Below, piece by piece: positions 34,554 through 45,147 of a stretch of 64,000 nt of DNA. Both the position numbers and the translations under genes were made by a program. Under the pieces are notes generated by a model, which was given only the letters and a program-made list of their open reading frames with translations, searched no databases and was not told the DNA's origin. The stretch's first letter is position 1; every line of letters starts with the position of its first letter. Source of the stretch: an uncultured Solirubrobacterales bacterium (GTDB taxonomy: Bacteria > Actinomycetota > Thermoleophilia > Solirubrobacterales > 70-9). The stretch spans positions 24,344-88,343 of the forward strand of contig CAVSPF010000005.1 in assembly GCA_963729995.1 (NCBI GenBank), given 5' to 3'.

Positions 34554-34595
34554 TGCCCCGAGCAGGATTCGAACCTGCGGCCTACTCCTTAGGAG
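34554..34595 (-). pseudogene. 3' half of the resident tRNA-Arg(CCT), from anticodon loop to the discriminator base
   Basis: The reverse complement reads CTCCTAAGGAGTAGGCCGCAGGTTCGAATCCTGCTCGGGGCA. It joins the 5' half at 45106..45147 into a perfect 74-nt cloverleaf. Confidence 0.9.
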
Positions 34596-35235
34596 CGTCA
34601 GTTTGTCAAGTCCTGAACTGGCTTGAAATCCCGAAAGTGGCTTGCCAATGCGGTTTCGAAGAAAGACGCCAACGGCCGCCAGGGCGTCAGAGGGCAGATT
34701 TGTCCCAACCTTTGTTCCAACCCGGAGGCGCGATAATCGAGGCCATTGCCCCGGTAGCTCAGCTGGAAAGAGCGGCCGCCTCCTAAGCGGCAGGTCGCCG
34801 GTTCGAATCCGGCCCGGGGCACTCTTGTATCCATCGCTTTGTAGAACTCGGTCCAATTCCGATCGGGCCCAAAGACGGTGGCTCGGCTCCACCCGCGCCT
34901 CAGACGTAGGTCGAGGCGCAGGTGCTGTTTCGAGTGACTTGACACTTCTCTAAACACCCGACTTAGCACGGATATCCGCACAATCTCTTGGGGCGCCATC
35001 GGGCCGCTGGTTGCGGTCAGCTGCCCAGTTGTGGACTTGGCCACGAGCTGAGGCTCTGGCCAACAGGAGGAAGGTTTTGTCTCTTGTGGAAACCACGCCG
35101 TTTCCCTACAGTTACGGATTCCCGCAGGGGTTGCAGGGACGCAAAGGCCCTACTGGGCCTAGGGAAAGCAACAGGGATAGAAGGACCTCTCAACACAGAG
35201 AGAAGGGATCTGTGCGCAATTCCGCAAGGGATTGG
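34586..35235 (+). repeat. Left copy of the 650-bp perfect inverted repeat (core + arm with tRNA-Arg)
   Basis: It is the reverse complement of 42556..43205. Every block I compared is identical, and the ORF translations spanning the repeat are identical. Confidence 0.9.
34748..34821 (+). tRNA. tRNA-Arg(CCT), element-borne copy 1
   Basis: GCCCCGG TA GCTC AGCTGGAAA GAGC G GCCGC CTCCTAA GCGGC AGGTC GCCGG TTCGAAT CCGGC CCGGGGC A. All four stems pair perfectly. No encoded CCA. Confidence 0.92.
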
Positions 35236-35536
35236 ATCCCAGGCCGGCTAAAGCGAGTAGCCAAGGGTCACGCAAAGAGAGCAACGCGCTCTCGCCGACC
35301 CGAGATCCTTGAAAACCGAATCTTTGCGGCACCTGGCCTCCCCGCCCGCGGGGGCCTTGCTCCTTCCTGCCTGCATCTCGATGCCCGTCGGTTGGCTTTC
35401 GGGCCACAAACAGATGGCACCGGCAGCGAGCCCTGCAAGCCCTTGCGGGGCTCCTTGCGGCCCCTCCCTTCGGGTCGGGGTTCCGGGCTCACTGTCCGGC
35501 GCCCTCACAAGCCAACCGACCCGACCTCCCTACAGC

Positions 35537-35690
35537 TCGACAGGTTGGAACAAAAGGGAGTTGGAACGGATTGCCTATGAAGGTGAGAGAGACAGGCACC
35601 GATCACCACGGCAATGAGCTTCCCGATGGCATCTCCGCCACCACCCGCAAGGCCGACGGCGTCATCGTTGGGTCGTCGCCTGCCACCTGC
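35537..35690 (+). pseudogene. Decayed 5' fragment of a second integrase gene
   Basis: Homologous to the reverse complement of the int 5' region (about 44860..45006). Nearly identical over 35583..35670. A 10-nt length difference and a stop (..LEQKGVGTDCL*) break the frame. Confidence 0.75.
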
Positions 35691-35832
35691 GCAAGAGCCT
35701 TGTCCCCACTGCTTCTGCCTGACGGCCGGCCCGCCGTGGTTGGGTGGTGAGGGACCAGAAAAAGAAGCATCCAGGTCGGCAGCTCTGCTGCCGACTGCCG
35801 CCATTATCGGGGGGGTGTGGACGCCGGCGACG

Positions 35833-35891
35833 CCGGGGTCAAGGCCCTTCGGCCCCTGCGGGGCGGCCCTTCGGGCCGGCCTTGACCCCGG
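35833..35891. other. Compound GC-rich hairpin (14-bp outer stem enclosing two small hairpins)
   Basis: CCGGGGTCAAGGCC ... GGCCTTGACCCCGG with internal GCCCC-TGC-GGGGC and GGCCC-TTC-GGGCC. Confidence 0.6.
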
Positions 35892-36018
35892 CTTGTCGGC
35901 GACCGGGCTATAGATAGGTGGCTCAAGGGTTCGTTCTTGTCGACGCCCACCCGCTATCGAGTCCGCCTTGGGCCACCCCGCAATCTGTTTGCGCGAAGCG
36001 CTGGGGCTAGACAAGGGC

Positions 36019-42512: not shown

Positions 42513-42555
42513 CAGTTTCCATTGCACTGTCACTATTCACTCCGTTGCCACTCAC

Positions 42556-43205
42556 CCAATCCCTTGCGGAATTGCGCACAGATCCCTTCTCTCTGTGTTG
42601 AGAGGTCCTTCTATCCCTGTTGCTTTCCCTAGGCCCAGTAGGGCCTTTGCGTCCCTGCAACCCCTGCGGGAATCCGTAACTGTAGGGAAACGGCGTGGTT
42701 TCCACAAGAGACAAAACCTTCCTCCTGTTGGCCAGAGCCTCAGCTCGTGGCCAAGTCCACAACTGGGCAGCTGACCGCAACCAGCGGCCCGATGGCGCCC
42801 CAAGAGATTGTGCGGATATCCGTGCTAAGTCGGGTGTTTAGAGAAGTGTCAAGTCACTCGAAACAGCACCTGCGCCTCGACCTACGTCTGAGGCGCGGGT
42901 GGAGCCGAGCCACCGTCTTTGGGCCCGATCGGAATTGGACCGAGTTCTACAAAGCGATGGATACAAGAGTGCCCCGGGCCGGATTCGAACCGGCGACCTG
43001 CCGCTTAGGAGGCGGCCGCTCTTTCCAGCTGAGCTACCGGGGCAATGGCCTCGATTATCGCGCCTCCGGGTTGGAACAAAGGTTGGGACAAATCTGCCCT
43101 CTGACGCCCTGGCGGCCGTTGGCGTCTTTCTTCGAAACCGCATTGGCAAGCCACTTTCGGGATTTCAAGCCAGTTCAGGACTTGACAAACTGACGCTCCT
43201 AAGGA
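42556..43205 (-). repeat. Right copy of the 650-bp perfect inverted repeat
   Basis: Reverse complement of 34586..35235 (coordinates sum to 77791). Ends with the core CTCCTAAGGA at 43196..43205. Confidence 0.9.
42970..43043 (-). tRNA. tRNA-Arg(CCT), element-borne copy 2
   Basis: Identical to the copy at 34748..34821, in inverted orientation. Confidence 0.92.
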
Positions 43206-43317
43206 ACCCTTCGTAGCGCGACAGCGGGCGAACGGTTACCTCCCTCAAAGCCACTCGTAGAGCCGAATTAGGCTGATCGAGAGTGGAGCAGATCCGCCGC
43301 TTGTTCGACAGGTTGGA
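43196..43317 (+). repeat. Left copy of the 122-bp perfect inverted repeat (core + integrase-proximal arm + first 35 nt of int)
   Basis: Checked base by base against the reverse complement of 44994..45115 and found identical. With the adjacent 650-bp repeat it forms an intact attP-like junction in inverted orientation. Confidence 0.9.
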
Positions 43318-43438
43318 CCGACTGGAGAGTCGCCAGCGCGAGCGCTCGGAGAGCGATCAGCACCCGGCCAAGAACCTATGGCTACGGACGCCGAAACGGG
43401 CGACGGCGCCGCTGAAAGGCAGCCTGATGCTGGGGGGA

Positions 43439-45028
43439 TTAGGCCGGAACAGCGGGATGCCGCTCTGGCTCTCGAGCCCTGCGTCTTCGGGCTTGACGCT
43501 CGCCCTCTTTAGCGGCACGAGCCCGCCGCCGACTCTGGGCCTCCCGCTGAGGGCCCTCTCGCTCGTCGGGCTTGAATGGATTCTGTTCGACTCCGAGCCG
43601 AGCCCGCCGACACTCGTCCTCGATCTCAAACGGCGGCTGGCCGAAGTAGCGGGCGATCAGGTGGCTGTAGTAACGCTGCAGGGTCTCGATGTCGTGTGCC
43701 GCCCACCCGGCAAGCAAGTGCAGGTTCATTCCGTGGGGTCCCATCACCAGGGTTGAGTGAAGGGCCATCGAAATTGCCGTATGGCGACAGTCGTAAAAGG
43801 TCATTCTGTGGAGCCCGACGGGTGCGTCCGGCGCTTGCGCCGCGGCGGTCCGGGCCGGAATCCACACTCTTTTGACCCACTGGTTGTAGTTGTTCTTTGT
43901 CCACGCCAGCGGTACCGGTTCGCCCCCATCCTCTGGCGTCACCCATATAGGCCCTTCGTCACCAAGGGCCTGAAAGACCAAACCATTCTGCGGCTGAGGC
44001 CCGAAGCGATCCTCCAGCGCTTCGCGGTAGACGGCGATGCGATCCCAGGCGTTGGGGAGAACGAGGGCGACGTGCGCCCCCGTCTTCAAGCCTGGGATGA
44101 CTTCCGGATCGCCCTGGCGCGCCCGCTGCAGCTCGACCGTCCCGATCCCGGCGCTTGGGTCTGGCGGGGCAAACAGATTTTCCCAGGCGGCCGACAGACG
44201 CCATTCGGATGGTCGCGAGGCGATGGTGTAGCCCATCGCTGCCACTAAGGCGGCATCGCGGAGCGGCAACAGATCATCACGCGCTGGACGAGCCAGCACC
44301 GCCTCGATGATCCGCTCCAAGCCGATCGCATCAGCGGCGTAGGCGAGGCGCGATTTGCTCTGCTTGGGAAGCTGGATCAGTCCCGACAGCTCCACGGTAA
44401 GAGCGTTTGGGTGCCGGCGCCTTCCCCAGCGCATGACGGCTCGAAACAGTTTCAGGATTTCTCGTCGCTTTGATTGCTTCAAACCGTCGGCGATCAGTTC
44501 ATCCTGAAAGCGGACAAGAGTCGCGGGGTCCGCTGAAATTCGATCAAGTCGTGTTCGTCCGATTGGTCGCGGCTCGATCTCCTTCGCCCAAAATTTGGCC
44601 GACCTCTCGTGGTATTCCTGGCTCACTTCCGGTCCGTGGTTCACGATCCACTCGCGGAGAAGATCGTTCGGAGTCATGGCGCAGGCCGGGTCGACTCTGA
44701 CCACCGCGCCGTCGACCTTGACCGCTTCGCGGGCTTCCGCGAGGAAGGTGACCGCCGCCTCCAACGCTCGATCCAACGAGCCCAGCTTGCGCTCCGAGAA
44801 CGAACGGCTCGGATGACGCCTGATCCCGTTGTGGTCCTCCTCCCACCAGCGACTCCGGTAGCCGACGATGACGCCGTCGGCCTTGCGGGTGGTGGCGGAA
44901 ATGCCATCGGGAAGCTCATTGCCGTGGTGATCGGTGCCTGTCTCTCTCACCTCCAAAGCCATCCGTTCCAGCCCCTTTTGTCCCAACCTCTGTTCCAACC
45001 TGTCGAACAAGCGGCGGATCTGCTCCAC
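43439..45028 (-). CDS. int: Tyrosine-type site-specific recombinase/integrase
   Basis: 529 aa with a GTG start. C-terminal catalytic region: ..ARPSEWRL.., FYDCRHTAISMAL (HxxR) and LAGWAAHDIETLQRYYSHL (catalytic Tyr). Basic Arg-rich tail. Confidence 0.85.
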   Translation of the reverse strand: MEQIRRLFDRLEQRLGQKGLERMALEVRETGTDHHGNELPDGISATTRKADGVIVGYRSRWWEEDHNGIRRHPSRSFSERKLGSLDRALEAAVTFLAEAREAVKVDGAVVRVDPACAMTPNDLLREWIVNHGPEVSQEYHERSAKFWAKEIEPRPIGRTRLDRISADPATLVRFQDELIADGLKQSKRREILKLFRAVMRWGRRRHPNALTVELSGLIQLPKQSKSRLAYAADAIGLERIIEAVLARPARDDLLPLRDAALVAAMGYTIASRPSEWRLSAAWENLFAPPDPSAGIGTVELQRARQGDPEVIPGLKTGAHVALVLPNAWDRIAVYREALEDRFGPQPQNGLVFQALGDEGPIWVTPEDGGEPVPLAWTKNNYNQWVKRVWIPARTAAAQAPDAPVGLHRMTFYDCRHTAISMALHSTLVMGPHGMNLHLLAGWAAHDIETLQRYYSHLIARYFGQPPFEIEDECRRARLGVEQNPFKPDEREGPQREAQSRRRARAAKEGERQARRRRAREPERHPAVPA

Positions 45029-45115
45029 TCTCGATCAGCCTAATTCGGCTCTACGAGTGGCTTTGAGGGAGGTAACCGTTCGCCCGCTGTCGCGCTACGA
45101 AGGGTTCCTTAGGAG
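44994..45115 (-). repeat. Right copy of the 122-bp inverted repeat (functional int 5' end + arm + core)
   Basis: See 43196..43317. Confidence 0.9.
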
Positions 45116-45147
45116 GGAGTCGCTCTATCCAGCTGAGCTATCGGGGC
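45106..45147 (-). pseudogene. 5' half of the resident tRNA-Arg(CCT), from the acceptor end to the anticodon loop
   Basis: The reverse complement reads GCCCCGATAGCTCAGCTGGATAGAGCGACTCCCTCCTAAGGA. The element DNA that follows (ACCCTTCGTAGCG..) cannot complete a tRNA. Confidence 0.9.

Follow-up and report, generated by a model that had tools for sequence, protein, structure and literature searches.

A probable integrative island that splits a tRNA-Arg(CCT) gene and brings its own copies in a Solirubrobacterales chromosome

A tRNA gene interrupted in its anticodon loop

The window, by which we mean the whole 64-kb stretch of DNA that was analysed, comes from a soil bacterium and contains a resident tRNA-Arg(CCT) gene that is divided by an insert of 10,510 bp (34596–45105). 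The parts of the gene and the adjoining core copies are arranged as follows.

34554–34585, minus strand: 3′ part of the resident tRNA-Arg(CCT), from the 3′ strand of the anticodon stem to the 3′ end of the acceptor; displaced by the insertion, with 0 mismatches to the 3′ half in L012 and L022
34586–34595, minus strand: core copy 1, at the junction of arm A and the tRNA 3′ part, reading CTCCTAAGGA on this strand
45106–45115, minus strand: core copy 3, at the junction of the tRNA 5′ part and arm B
45116–45147, minus strand: 5′ part of the resident tRNA-Arg(CCT), from the 5′ strand of the acceptor to the 5′ strand of the anticodon stem

The 5′ half of the gene (the reverse complement of 45106–45147, GCCCCGATAGCTCAGCTGGATAGAGCGACTCCCTCCTAAGGA) and the 3′ half (the reverse complement of 34554–34595, CTCCTAAGGAGTAGGCCGCAGGTTCGAATCCTGCTCGGGGCA) have the 10-nt core CTCCTAAGGA in common, which occurs exactly 3 times in the window compared with 0.06 expected occurrences; in 100 shuffles the count never reached 3. 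In the reconstructed empty site, ARAGORN predicts a tRNA-Arg(cct). The joined 74-mer is identical to intact tRNA-Arg(CCT) genes in two related Solirubrobacterales (L012 and L022) and differs by 1–2 nt from those in L086–L088; the two halves are thus contiguous in related genomes, and the split in the anticodon loop that had been proposed from the sequence alone, together with the genome comparison suggested for it, is borne out. An empty site from the same species was not found, and the next relative of the conserved neighbouring gene, flankL, is only 87% identical.

The same sequence-only reading held that element and target share 10 bp only and that neither junction rebuilds the gene. Both points stand: the shared stretch is the core, and searches of both junctions with ARAGORN and Infernal detect no tRNA. 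Since attP and the anticodon loop of the chromosomal gene have nothing but CTCCTAAGGA in common, the gene is split and no functional tRNA is left at either junction. Its premise that tRNA-targeting integrases normally regenerate the gene holds within this very family, in which sister integrases do so with 44–48-bp repeats.

Integrase and cargo

The insert encodes its own integrase, preceded by a pair of arm-type sites, and cargo that is defence-like.

43439–44962, minus strand: int, a divergent tyrosine integrase of 507 amino acids with its start codon (ATG) at 44962; PHROG integrase, E = 6e-16
44978–45000, minus strand: tandem pair of arm-type sites (GGTTGGRACAR twice), 16–38 nt upstream of the int start codon
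36019–37023, minus strand: cargo ORF, coding-like by GC3 profile
37097–38272, plus strand: cargo ORF, coding-like by GC3 profile
38289–41960, minus strand: cargo operon of three genes
38289–38963, minus strand: DUF7002, in the operon
38957–40564, minus strand: P-loop kinase fused to a PurA/PurZ-like adenylosuccinate synthetase, in the operon
40569–41960, minus strand: M78 peptidase fused to a macro/DarG-like domain, in the operon

The AlphaFold2 model of int (mean pLDDT of 80.7) matches Tn1549 Int (E = 3.5e-6), XerH and lambda Int in Foldseek searches. Its layout is lambda-like, with a beta-sheet domain at the N terminus as well as core-binding and catalytic domains, and residues R272, K315, R415, H445 and Y454 (numbered as in the 529-aa ORF) are invariant across the family. 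Tandem arm-type sites lie on both sides of the core, about 105–130 bp away; all 7 exact copies in the window fall inside the element, and 9 matches were counted where 2.5 were expected.

Searches of Pfam, NCBIfam, PHROGs, PADLOC and PDB sequences returned no match for the two cargo ORFs outside the operon, and no excisionase, replication, transfer or packaging genes were recognised in the element. It carries no phage genes and is apparently non-viral. If the element were excised between its outer junctions, the host tRNA would be restored and a circle of 10,520 bp with two inverted att sites released; a circular form of the element was not found.

A carried tRNA-Arg(CCT)

Within the element lie two further tRNA-Arg(CCT) genes, each scoring 70.7 bits against the Rfam tRNA model, for which the gathering score is 29.

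34748–34822, plus strand: element-borne tRNA-Arg(CCT), copy 1, with covariation
42969–43043, minus strand: element-borne tRNA-Arg(CCT), copy 2

The two copies are identical and complete and each has its own predicted promoter; their stems differ from those of the resident gene yet are fully paired, in agreement with the initial description. A −10-like box, GCGATAAT, lies 8–12 nt upstream of the carried tRNA and is conserved in 13 of the 13 carried copies examined. Across 9 distinct sequences, 6 of the 21 base pairs show double compensatory changes and a single cell is broken. From the Rfam score, the conserved GCGATAAT box and these compensatory changes, the carried tRNA looks functional.

Twelve further loci share with the window the junction of 5′ half, core, B′ and int. 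A carried tRNA is present at every locus that shows the split near-end junction and a sufficient part of the element (the window, L001, L009, L019, L058 and L090), whereas no second copy is found in the 8 islands where the tRNA-Arg(CCT) is regenerated. One locus (L058) has lost int and kept the tRNA with its promoter. No carried tRNA is visible within the 10 kb examined in L002–L008, in which the elements may extend further. In a neighbour-joining tree, all 13 integrases of the split-target, non-regenerating type form one clade that is nested among classical tRNA-regenerating relatives, with L010–L032 as the regenerating sister clade. As judged from these sequences, the unrepaired split together with the carried tRNA is a family trait and not an accident.

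An inverted duplicate of attP and tRNA

The module that comprises attP and the carried tRNA (B-core-A, 762 bp) is duplicated in inverted orientation inside the element, between an int segment of 1.7 kb and a cargo segment of 7.3 kb.

34596–35235, plus strand: arm A, the inverted-repeat copy of 640 nt that lies at the element end, with an arm-type site pair (34700–34722), the promoter box GCGATAAT and copy 1 of the carried tRNA
42556–43195, minus strand: arm A′, which repeats arm A in inverted orientation inside the element and contains tRNA copy 2 as well as arm-type sites at 43069–43091
43196–43205, plus strand: core copy 2, inverted and internal, which with A′ and B′ forms the inverted attP copy
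43206–43317, minus strand: arm B′, 112 nt, which repeats arm B in inverted orientation inside the element (repeat I2: 122 nt, 100%)
44994–45105, plus strand: arm B, the int-proximal element end, of non-tRNA sequence
35538–35672, plus strand: relic of the 5′ end of a second int, opposite in orientation to the live int and comprising one arm-type site, the leader and about 33 codons; tblastn to amino acids 13–56, E = 2e-14, with 93% nucleotide identity to 44862–44989

Both tRNA copies lie inside a perfect 650-nt inverted repeat (I1, 100%). This repeat, and the third core that joins copies of both element ends (A′-core′-B′), had been overlooked in the sequence-only reading. Because arm B′ breaks off within the arm-type site pair, the B side of the internal att copy has no complete sites, and this copy may be recombination-incompetent. 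The design recurs in four independent assemblies (the window, L001, L089 and L090). Repeat copies are 99–100% identical within an element, compared with 88.6% between the window and L001; on this sequence evidence, the copies evolve in concert. Ongoing recombination or gene conversion would keep them identical, and recombination between them may flip segments of the element. No inversion isomers were observed, and int is directed away from the 5′ half in all four inverted-repeat elements.

An alternative reading is that the duplication is a functionless neutral scar, left by a head-to-head fusion of two related elements and kept identical by ordinary RecA gene conversion. We regard this as a serious possibility that falls a little short of probable. 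It fits the inverted int relic just inside arm A, the incomplete B-side sites of the internal att copy and the uniform direction of the four int genes, which gives no sign of flipping. However, the design has been inherited across a subclade in which int is 86–90% identical and the cargo is completely different, and the B-arm boundary is common to all four elements (112–117 nt) while the copies are still near-identical; one would expect a neutral scar to degenerate or disappear.

We consider it likely that 34596–45105 is a 10.5-kb integrative island in the Solirubrobacterales chromosome, with its own integrase, an unrepaired split tRNA, a replacement tRNA and a duplicated attP–tRNA module.

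Dependence of the host on the carried tRNA

In host genes, 4.3 of every 1000 codons are AGG. By analogy with phages of 'tRNA-dependent lysogeny', in which the logic is proven, the carried tRNA would take over AGG decoding. The bacterial group also has a tRNA-Arg(UCU) gene (anticodon TCT in DNA; L031). If its product reads AGG by wobble, as it might, the host would not strictly depend on the carried tRNA. The element could then be integrated as described in a host that reads AGG through this wobble or another CCU copy, with the carried tRNA serving as a codon supply for lower-GC cargo or as a counter-defence decoy. Element genes use AGA and AGG at 4.5 and 5.3 per 1000 codons, compared with 1.4 and 4.3 in the host, and in Escherichia coli the CCU isoacceptor argW is dispensable; both observations count in favour of such independence. 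Anti-defence roles discussed for phage tRNAs (PMC10865867) also count in its favour. We nevertheless think it rather unlikely, given the perfect association of split targets with a carried tRNA of the same anticodon and of regenerated targets with none, the retention of tRNA and promoter in L058 after the decay of int, and the fact that the carried anticodon is always exactly that of the destroyed gene.

Assembly and mode of insertion

Inverted repeats are hard to assemble, and related MAGs have frameshifts typical of long-read consensus error (flankL in L001 and several int genes), so a chimeric inverted duplication or a misjoined contig could in principle mimic a split tRNA that is intact in the organism. 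This is very improbable. An independently assembled Logan contig (L036, run ERR12035932) matches the window at 100% from flankL through the tRNA 3′ half and the core to 20 nt inside the element, and stops at the start of the repeat, where a k-mer assembler would halt. The same architecture occurs in three other samples, two of them short-read JGI contigs; the junction of arm, core and 3′ half is present in 45 metagenome contigs; and GC content drops from 0.70–0.72 to 0.55–0.66 exactly at the junctions.

A short 10-bp repeat without regeneration resembles the insertions of serine integrases or transposons, but we reject a target-site duplication: the element has no transposase or serine recombinase, its sole recombinase has a predicted tyrosine-recombinase fold, the internal copy is a contiguous B-core-A attP that is incompatible with such a duplication, and sister elements use the same position with 44–48 bp of tRNA identity.

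Relationship to known elements

The strategy of splitting and replacing a tRNA gene is not new. Its principle is that of tRNA-dependent lysogeny, which has been demonstrated experimentally in actinobacteriophages, including mycobacterial viruses, with a short core, no tRNA reconstruction and a carried cognate tRNA (Guerrero-Bustamante & Hatfull 2024, PMC10865867); examples are Fionnbharth K4, Cain K6, cluster L, BrutonGaster/OneUp CQ2, Mollymur DL and Gaia X. The window element resembles these phages in its tyrosine integrase with arm-type sites, its attB in a tRNA gene, its Actinomycetota host, the lack of tRNA reconstruction and the shared anticodon of the carried tRNA. Core lengths also correspond: 8–17 bp in the phages and 10 bp here, compared with 43–52 bp and 44–48 bp in the respective close relatives that regenerate the tRNA (PMC10865867). 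The need for the carried tRNA is experimentally proven in the phages, whereas here it is suggested by analogy. The Arg-CCT isotype is absent from the table in that study, and unlike the phages the element places its tRNA inside an att arm, inverted and 150–230 bp from the core. The int family has no detectable similarity to the phage and plasmid sequences searched, with no relative among 50,697 phage records or in IMG/VR, which argues that the strategy arose independently. What is new is its occurrence without phage genes, with a separate integrase family, a single non-regenerating clade and a 762-bp inverted duplicate of attP plus tRNA.

Islander-type tRNA islands share the anticodon-loop target, the arm layout and the integrase family of the sister clade L010–L032 (Hudson, Lau & Williams, PMC4383910). 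In classical islands, attP contains the 3′ part of the tRNA, and a direct repeat of 40–50 bp leaves an intact gene at one end (PMC4383910); the window element has 10 bp of identity and two dead junctions.

The predicted excised circle consists of two unique segments parted by long perfect inverted repeats. It thereby resembles the yeast 2-micron plasmid, in which FRT sites, the targets of the Flp recombinase, lie inside 599-bp inverted repeats: in both, one unique segment encodes a tyrosine recombinase whose target lies in each of the repeats. Unlike that plasmid, the window element is integrated, and the arm sites of one of its att copies are incomplete; neither a replication origin nor a Rep protein was recognised, and no inversion isomers were observed.

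The whole block of tRNA plus element is inverted relative to flankL, an observation that the sequence-only reading did not make. The integrative-island model does not account for this inversion, which we count against it. In the linking of a tRNA-targeting integrase with inverted segments, the arrangement recalls the pTN3-type, integrase-driven inversions between tRNA genes in Thermococcales (PMC5495485). In the window, however, the end points of the inversion fall outside the tRNA, away from the core, which rules out an Int-catalysed event at the att site as its cause.

[quoted passage not shown] It differs from them in having no detectable FtsK-like transfer gene, Rep or Xis, and AICEs regenerate the tRNA target that the window element leaves split.

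A tRNA gene split and not rebuilt

The resident tRNA-Arg(CCT) gene is interrupted in its anticodon loop, with the two halves lying on either side of an island in which GC content drops from 0.70-0.72 outside to 0.55-0.66 exactly between the junctions. The 5' half ends with, and includes, the 10-nt core CTCCTAAGGA; the 3' half begins with the identical 10 nt (CTCCTAAGGA) and runs to the acceptor 3' end. This 10-mer occurs three times in 64 kb, against an expectation of 0.06.

Features of the island and its borders (window coordinates)
33885-34511, plus strand: left-flank gene (flankL)
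34595-34554, minus strand: 3' part of the resident tRNA-Arg(CCT)
34586-35235 and 42556-43205: inverted repeat 1 (650 nt, perfect)
34596-45105: island
35538-35672, plus strand: integrase gene relic
38289-41960, minus strand: cargo operon
43196-43317 and 44994-45115: inverted repeat 2 (122 nt, perfect)
43439-44962, minus strand: tyrosine integrase gene (int)
45147-45106, minus strand: 5' part of the resident tRNA-Arg(CCT)

A sequence-only reading had proposed that the halves belong to one tRNA, that neither junction rebuilds it and that the insert brings a complete tRNA-Arg(CCT) in two copies, and all three proposals are borne out. The joined halves form a 74-nt tRNA-Arg(CCT) that ARAGORN calls on the reconstructed empty site. 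The comparison with related genomes that it had suggested gives contiguous halves: the joined gene matches the intact genes of two related genomes (L012 and L022) base for base, and the intact genes of three others (L086-L088) lie 1-2 nt from it, through a compensatory T-stem pair. Neither ARAGORN nor Infernal finds a tRNA at either junction; the window holds two tRNAs only, both inside the insert and identical, each scoring 70.7 bits against the Rfam tRNA family (gathering score, 29). The same reading saw in misassembly a possible undoing of the case. However, an independent Logan contig (L036, from run ERR12035932) is 100% identical over flankL, the 3' half, the core and 20 nt of the element, ending at the point at which the repeat would halt a k-mer assembler, and we consider misassembly of the window very unlikely. 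What does not stand is the claim of a new kind of system, as the principle has already been described and proven (PMC10865867).

The 10-bp repeat is not a target-site duplication left by a serine integrase or a transposon: the sole recombinase is of the tyrosine type, and a contiguous copy of the attachment site exists within the element. The collections hold no empty site from the same species; the next relative of flankL is 87% identical.

Orientation of the block

More than 20 related genomes share a colinear arrangement of flankL and the 10 kb that precede it, upstream of tRNA-Arg(CCT), and in them the tRNA comes after flankL on the same strand. In the window, the tRNA 3' half next to flankL lies on the other strand, which means that tRNA and element are inverted as one block (window 33885-34595 and 45106-46715, set against L001, L010 and L086-L088). 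The left junction of the inverted block is confirmed by L036. The right neighbour, the pyruvate kinase gene pyk, elsewhere has a P450 gene upstream, and in one genome (that of L086 and L037) some 249 kb separate it from the tRNA locus. Assuming one large inversion with respect to this genome does not reproduce the window order. Nor can recombination at the core yield the block, because the end points of the inversion lie outside the tRNA; products of integrase action at the three cores only flip internal segments and never the host halves. We treat the inverted block as a lineage-specific rearrangement.

A mirrored attachment site with its own tRNA

A repeat scan identified two perfect inverted repeats, which overlap at a third, inverted copy of the core, a feature overlooked in the sequence-only reading. 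We call A the first 640 nt of the element from its left junction, B the 112 nt that reach its right junction, and A' and B' their internal inverted copies; along the plus strand, the order is then 3' half, core, A, cargo (7,320 nt), A', core', B', the int-containing segment (1,676 nt), B, core and 5' half. The internal site thus repeats, exactly and in inverted orientation, the attP (B-core-A) expected from excision; B-core-A measures 762 bp and is present in two inverted copies with 100% identity, and each A arm holds one of the two identical tRNA-Arg(CCT) genes. We considered B' as a decayed tRNA 3' half and rejected this, as a tRNA signal is absent and the similarity is unconvincing.

The same design is found in three relatives, which together with the window form one subclade of integrases (n = 4); in all four, int is oriented away from the 5' half.

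Duplicated att-tRNA units in related elements
L001: int 90% identical to that of the window; B arms 124 nt, 99% identical; A arms at least 315 nt, 99-100% identical, cut by the end of the locus
L089: short-read JGI contig from another sample; B arms 122 nt, 96.7% identical
L090: short-read JGI contig from another sample; B arms 127 nt, 99.2% identical; carried tRNA present; A arms cut by the end of the contig

The window and L001 are homologous only from the 5' half to the end of int (90.5%) and over B-core-a1-tRNA (87.7%), and the homology ends just past the tRNA. Copies of the unit are 99-100% identical within an element and 88.6% identical between the window and L001. This pattern is concerted evolution, and it points to an ancestral att-tRNA repeat that is actively homogenised. 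Just inside arm A lies a relic of a second int gene, made up of the leader, the first approximately 33 codons and one arm-type site. It shares 93% identity with the live gene and faces the other way, which suggests that two related elements fused head to head to give rise to the inverted design. The relic was also sought at the opposite end of the cargo in L001, as a sign of flipping, and is absent there.

The literature searched offers no precedent for an integrative element whose attP is duplicated in inverted form, and the mirrored att-tRNA architecture is unreported. The nearest analogy is the 2-micron plasmid, in which two long inverted repeats likewise carry the target of the plasmid's own recombinase and divide the circle into two unique segments; no Rep or replication origin was recognised in the element. 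Should the duplicated, inverted attP-tRNA unit be functional by design, excision would release a 2-micron-like circle. Its integrase could invert one or the other segment (int or cargo), and either att copy could serve for entry into the chromosome; orientation could set integrase expression or competence for excision. The internal copy may instead be a crippled att site, because it breaks off inside the pair of arm-type sites on the B side. A joint reading, in which the inverted attP-tRNA copy is a functional design and the carried tRNA can permanently supplant the chromosomal gene, seems to us improbable. It would mean, if true, that small, non-viral islands of defence genes are rewriting a core gene of translation throughout a bacterial order.

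A divergent family of tyrosine integrases

The only recombinase in the element is int, annotated as an open reading frame of 529 amino acids; we place the true start at the ATG at 44962, giving 507 amino acids. It matches a PHROG integrase (E = 6e-16). No Pfam or NCBIfam match was found, even at E ≤ 5 in Pfam, and the curated Phage_integrase models are unmatched; a profile of the family has no match among PDB sequences at E ≤ 1. Five residues are invariant in the family (R272, K315, R415, H445 and Y454 in the numbering of the 529-amino-acid frame); they fall where tyrosine recombinases are expected to have their catalytic residues. An AlphaFold2 model (mean pLDDT, 80.7) shows an N-terminal β-sheet followed by a helix (residues 27-106), and Foldseek aligns it with probability 1.0 to the Tn1549 Int (E = 3.5e-6), XerH and lambda Int.

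The motif GGTTGGRACAR has seven exact copies in the window, all seven of them inside the element, arranged as tandem pairs approximately 105-130 bp to each side of the core plus a single copy in the int relic. With up to one mismatch there are nine matches, a number reached by none of 100 shuffles. The pairs have the layout of the arm-type sites of a lambda-like integrase; like the heterobivalent enzymes of that kind, this one combines a putative N-terminal arm-binding domain with repeated arm-type sites on both sides of the core.

The family contains at least 229 proteins of 480-510 amino acids from soil Actinomycetota metagenomes. Precomputed Pfam domains are lacking, searches of Pfam, NCBIfam and PDB sequences give no match, and the proteins are recognisable only through PHROGs and structure prediction. 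Relatives were not detected in IMG/VR viral contigs, or by tblastn in 50,697 phage records and 72,556 plasmid records.

Split and regenerating relatives

A genome scan with the integrase recovered 35 loci, all from metagenome-assembled genomes of Solirubrobacterales or Thermoleophilia. At 12 of the 35, an intact tRNA-Arg(CCT) ends approximately 120 bp upstream of int. In classical members with both ends visible (L013 and L024), a direct repeat of 44-48 bp begins in the anticodon loop, and a long direct repeat with an intact tRNA at one junction is present in L013, L024, L054, L059, L060, L067, L071, L081 and L082. By contrast with such Islander-type islands, in which attP carries a 3' tRNA segment, the window has a repeat of 10 bp and two dead junctions. 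Twelve closer relatives (L001-L009, L019, L089 and L090) show the split arrangement of 5' half, CTCCTAAGG, conserved non-tRNA sequence and then int. Split sites are present on the complete chromosomes OY970300.1, OY970225.1 and OY969794.1. In a neighbour-joining tree, which is without support values and includes a few frameshifted sequences, the 13 split integrases group without exception in a single clade surrounded by regenerating relatives.

Distant members of the family lie directly downstream of other tRNA genes, pointing to several switches of tRNA target.

Other tRNA neighbours of the integrase family
tRNA-Ile(GAT): L013, L016
tRNA-Arg(ACG): L026, L027, L033
tRNA-Arg(TCT): L031

A first metagenome search pattern (B end plus core) returned no matches. 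Scanning with the end of arm A' plus the core gave 45 true far-end junctions, at which arm and core are joined to the tRNA 3' half. An inverted tRNA-Arg(CCT) lies 0.2 or 1.4 kb inside the arm at nine of the 45, and at seven the island is short, has an intact tRNA in direct orientation at its near end and lacks a second copy. All elements that reveal their split near-end junction and are covered over enough sequence have a carried tRNA (the window, L001, L009, L019, L058 and L090; L002-L008 stand outside this tally, their far ends lying beyond the 10 kb covered), and none of eight islands that regenerate tRNA-Arg(CCT) has one.

Signs that the carried tRNA may replace the resident gene

The carried tRNAs bear several marks of function. 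A predicted promoter box, GCGATAAT, stands 8-12 nt upstream in all 13 copies examined. Among nine distinct carried sequences, double compensatory changes affect all five anticodon-stem pairs and one T-stem pair, and only one of 189 pairing cells is broken. In the window, the carried tRNA has an anticodon stem of its own, GCCGC/GCGGC. AGG occurs at 4.3 per 1,000 codons in the host genes of the window, so some AGG decoder is needed.

In L058, a decayed element of 3.6 kb, the integrase is reduced to a fragment of 25 amino acids. The host tRNA is still split (5' half at 1143 with the locus oriented on the arm-core match), and the carried tRNA, approximately 222 nt before the far-end core, is intact together with its promoter box. 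This looks like permanent replacement of a chromosomal tRNA gene. Taken with the association between split targets and carried tRNAs, L058 makes host dependence on the carried tRNA plausible.

At L090 (1-227), the split 5' half sits 27 nt past flankL, in the canonical chromosomal position, but belongs to the element type (acceptor GCCCCGG, anticodon stem CCGCT), the integrase having used a target that matches the core over only about 7-8 nt. The carried-tRNA lineage may therefore derive from, or have replaced, a chromosomal variant. L090 also weakens the idea of self-immunity, by which the anticodon stem of the carried tRNA diverged from core positions 9-10 to escape targeting, as here a tRNA with the element-type stem served as the target.

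Comparison with tRNA-dependent lysogeny

The principle of destroying a tRNA target and bringing a replacement was described and proven in 2024 in actinobacteriophages (PMC10865867). In those phages, a tyrosine integrase uses an attB within a tRNA gene, the core is 8-17 bp and the tRNA is not rebuilt; the phage-encoded cognate tRNA is needed for lysogen survival. Close relatives with cores of 43-52 bp regenerate the tRNA, and the trait arose several times (PMC10865867). At the level of sequence, the island has every trait of such a system: a tyrosine integrase, an attB overlapping a host tRNA gene, a short core (10 bp), no functional tRNA at attL or attR, and tRNAs of the isotype and anticodon of the disrupted gene (two tRNA-Arg(CCT)). 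It departs from these systems in not being a temperate phage: neither PHROGs nor Pfam identifies phage structural, packaging or lysis genes in the element, the integrase has no relative in phage collections, and sister elements carry IS, HNH, CHAT and Shedu-like cargo. Nor were conjugative or replicative genes found in the element, and no FtsK/SpoIIIE-type transfer protein or Rep beside int/xis was detected in the window, L001 or L009.

New relative to the phage systems are the isotype (Arg-CCT), the host order and the integrase family; the island is an independent, non-phage instance of the known principle. As the integrase has no sequence relation to any phage record, we infer an independent origin in a small cargo island; on this evidence, the replacement-tRNA strategy appears to have arisen at least once more, in apparently non-viral islands. 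A strategy proven until now in actinobacteriophages only is thereby extended to small islands of a soil order rich in uncultured members, where it is driven by integrases that escape standard annotation. A single integrase tree contains an evolutionary series from regenerating elements, through non-regenerating elements with a carried tRNA, to a duplicated and inverted att-tRNA module.

There are practical consequences. Island finders that need a regenerated tRNA and a long direct repeat would miss split elements, integrase-based finders would miss islands that use this family, and tRNA annotation of such genomes would take the element-borne gene for the resident one. The short-core integrase with its tRNA cassette is also a possible integration tool for high-GC Actinomycetota, a use that the authors of the mBio study (PMC10865867) proposed for their own phage systems.

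Cargo

The cargo operon encodes a DUF7002 protein, a fusion of a P-loop kinase with a PurA/PurZ-like domain and a fusion of an M78 peptidase with a macro/DarG-like domain. The short PurA/PurZ-like adenylosuccinate synthetase scores 286 bits against PRK04293 and 191 bits against PurZ, both below the cut-offs. The operon could be a nucleotide-modifying defence or counter-defence module. Two further cargo open reading frames have no detectable relatives, including in relaxed Pfam and PDB sequence searches, and exact look-ups of pyk and the M78 protein returned no record. The cargo of sister elements is unrelated to that of the window: L001 carries (12757-20937) an IS with a DDE transposase, an HNH nuclease and a CHAT-domain protease of 752 amino acids, and the P0004 contig (an 11.9-kb JGI contig known from its gene list alone) encodes a protein with an SduA_C (Shedu) domain. 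The element backbone seems to be a carrier for swappable defence genes.

A second cassette family at the same site

The same anticodon-loop site of tRNA-Arg(CCT) is occupied by another family of cassettes, approximately 0.9-1.0 kb in length and without an integrase. Each unit consists of a displaced tRNA 5' half, an MNT (nucleotidyltransferase)-HEPN toxin-antitoxin pair and a new 5' half. From this order it follows that the direct repeat is the tRNA 5' half and that the gene is rebuilt from its 5' side, the mirror image of the usual rule. The units occur in tandem, often directly upstream of a split-type element.

MNT-HEPN cassettes (locus, coordinates)
L087: 14307-15260
L003: 7928-9811
L006: 8867-9848
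L019: 7789-8761
L021: 2449-4447
L032: 2836-3715
L058: 108-1142
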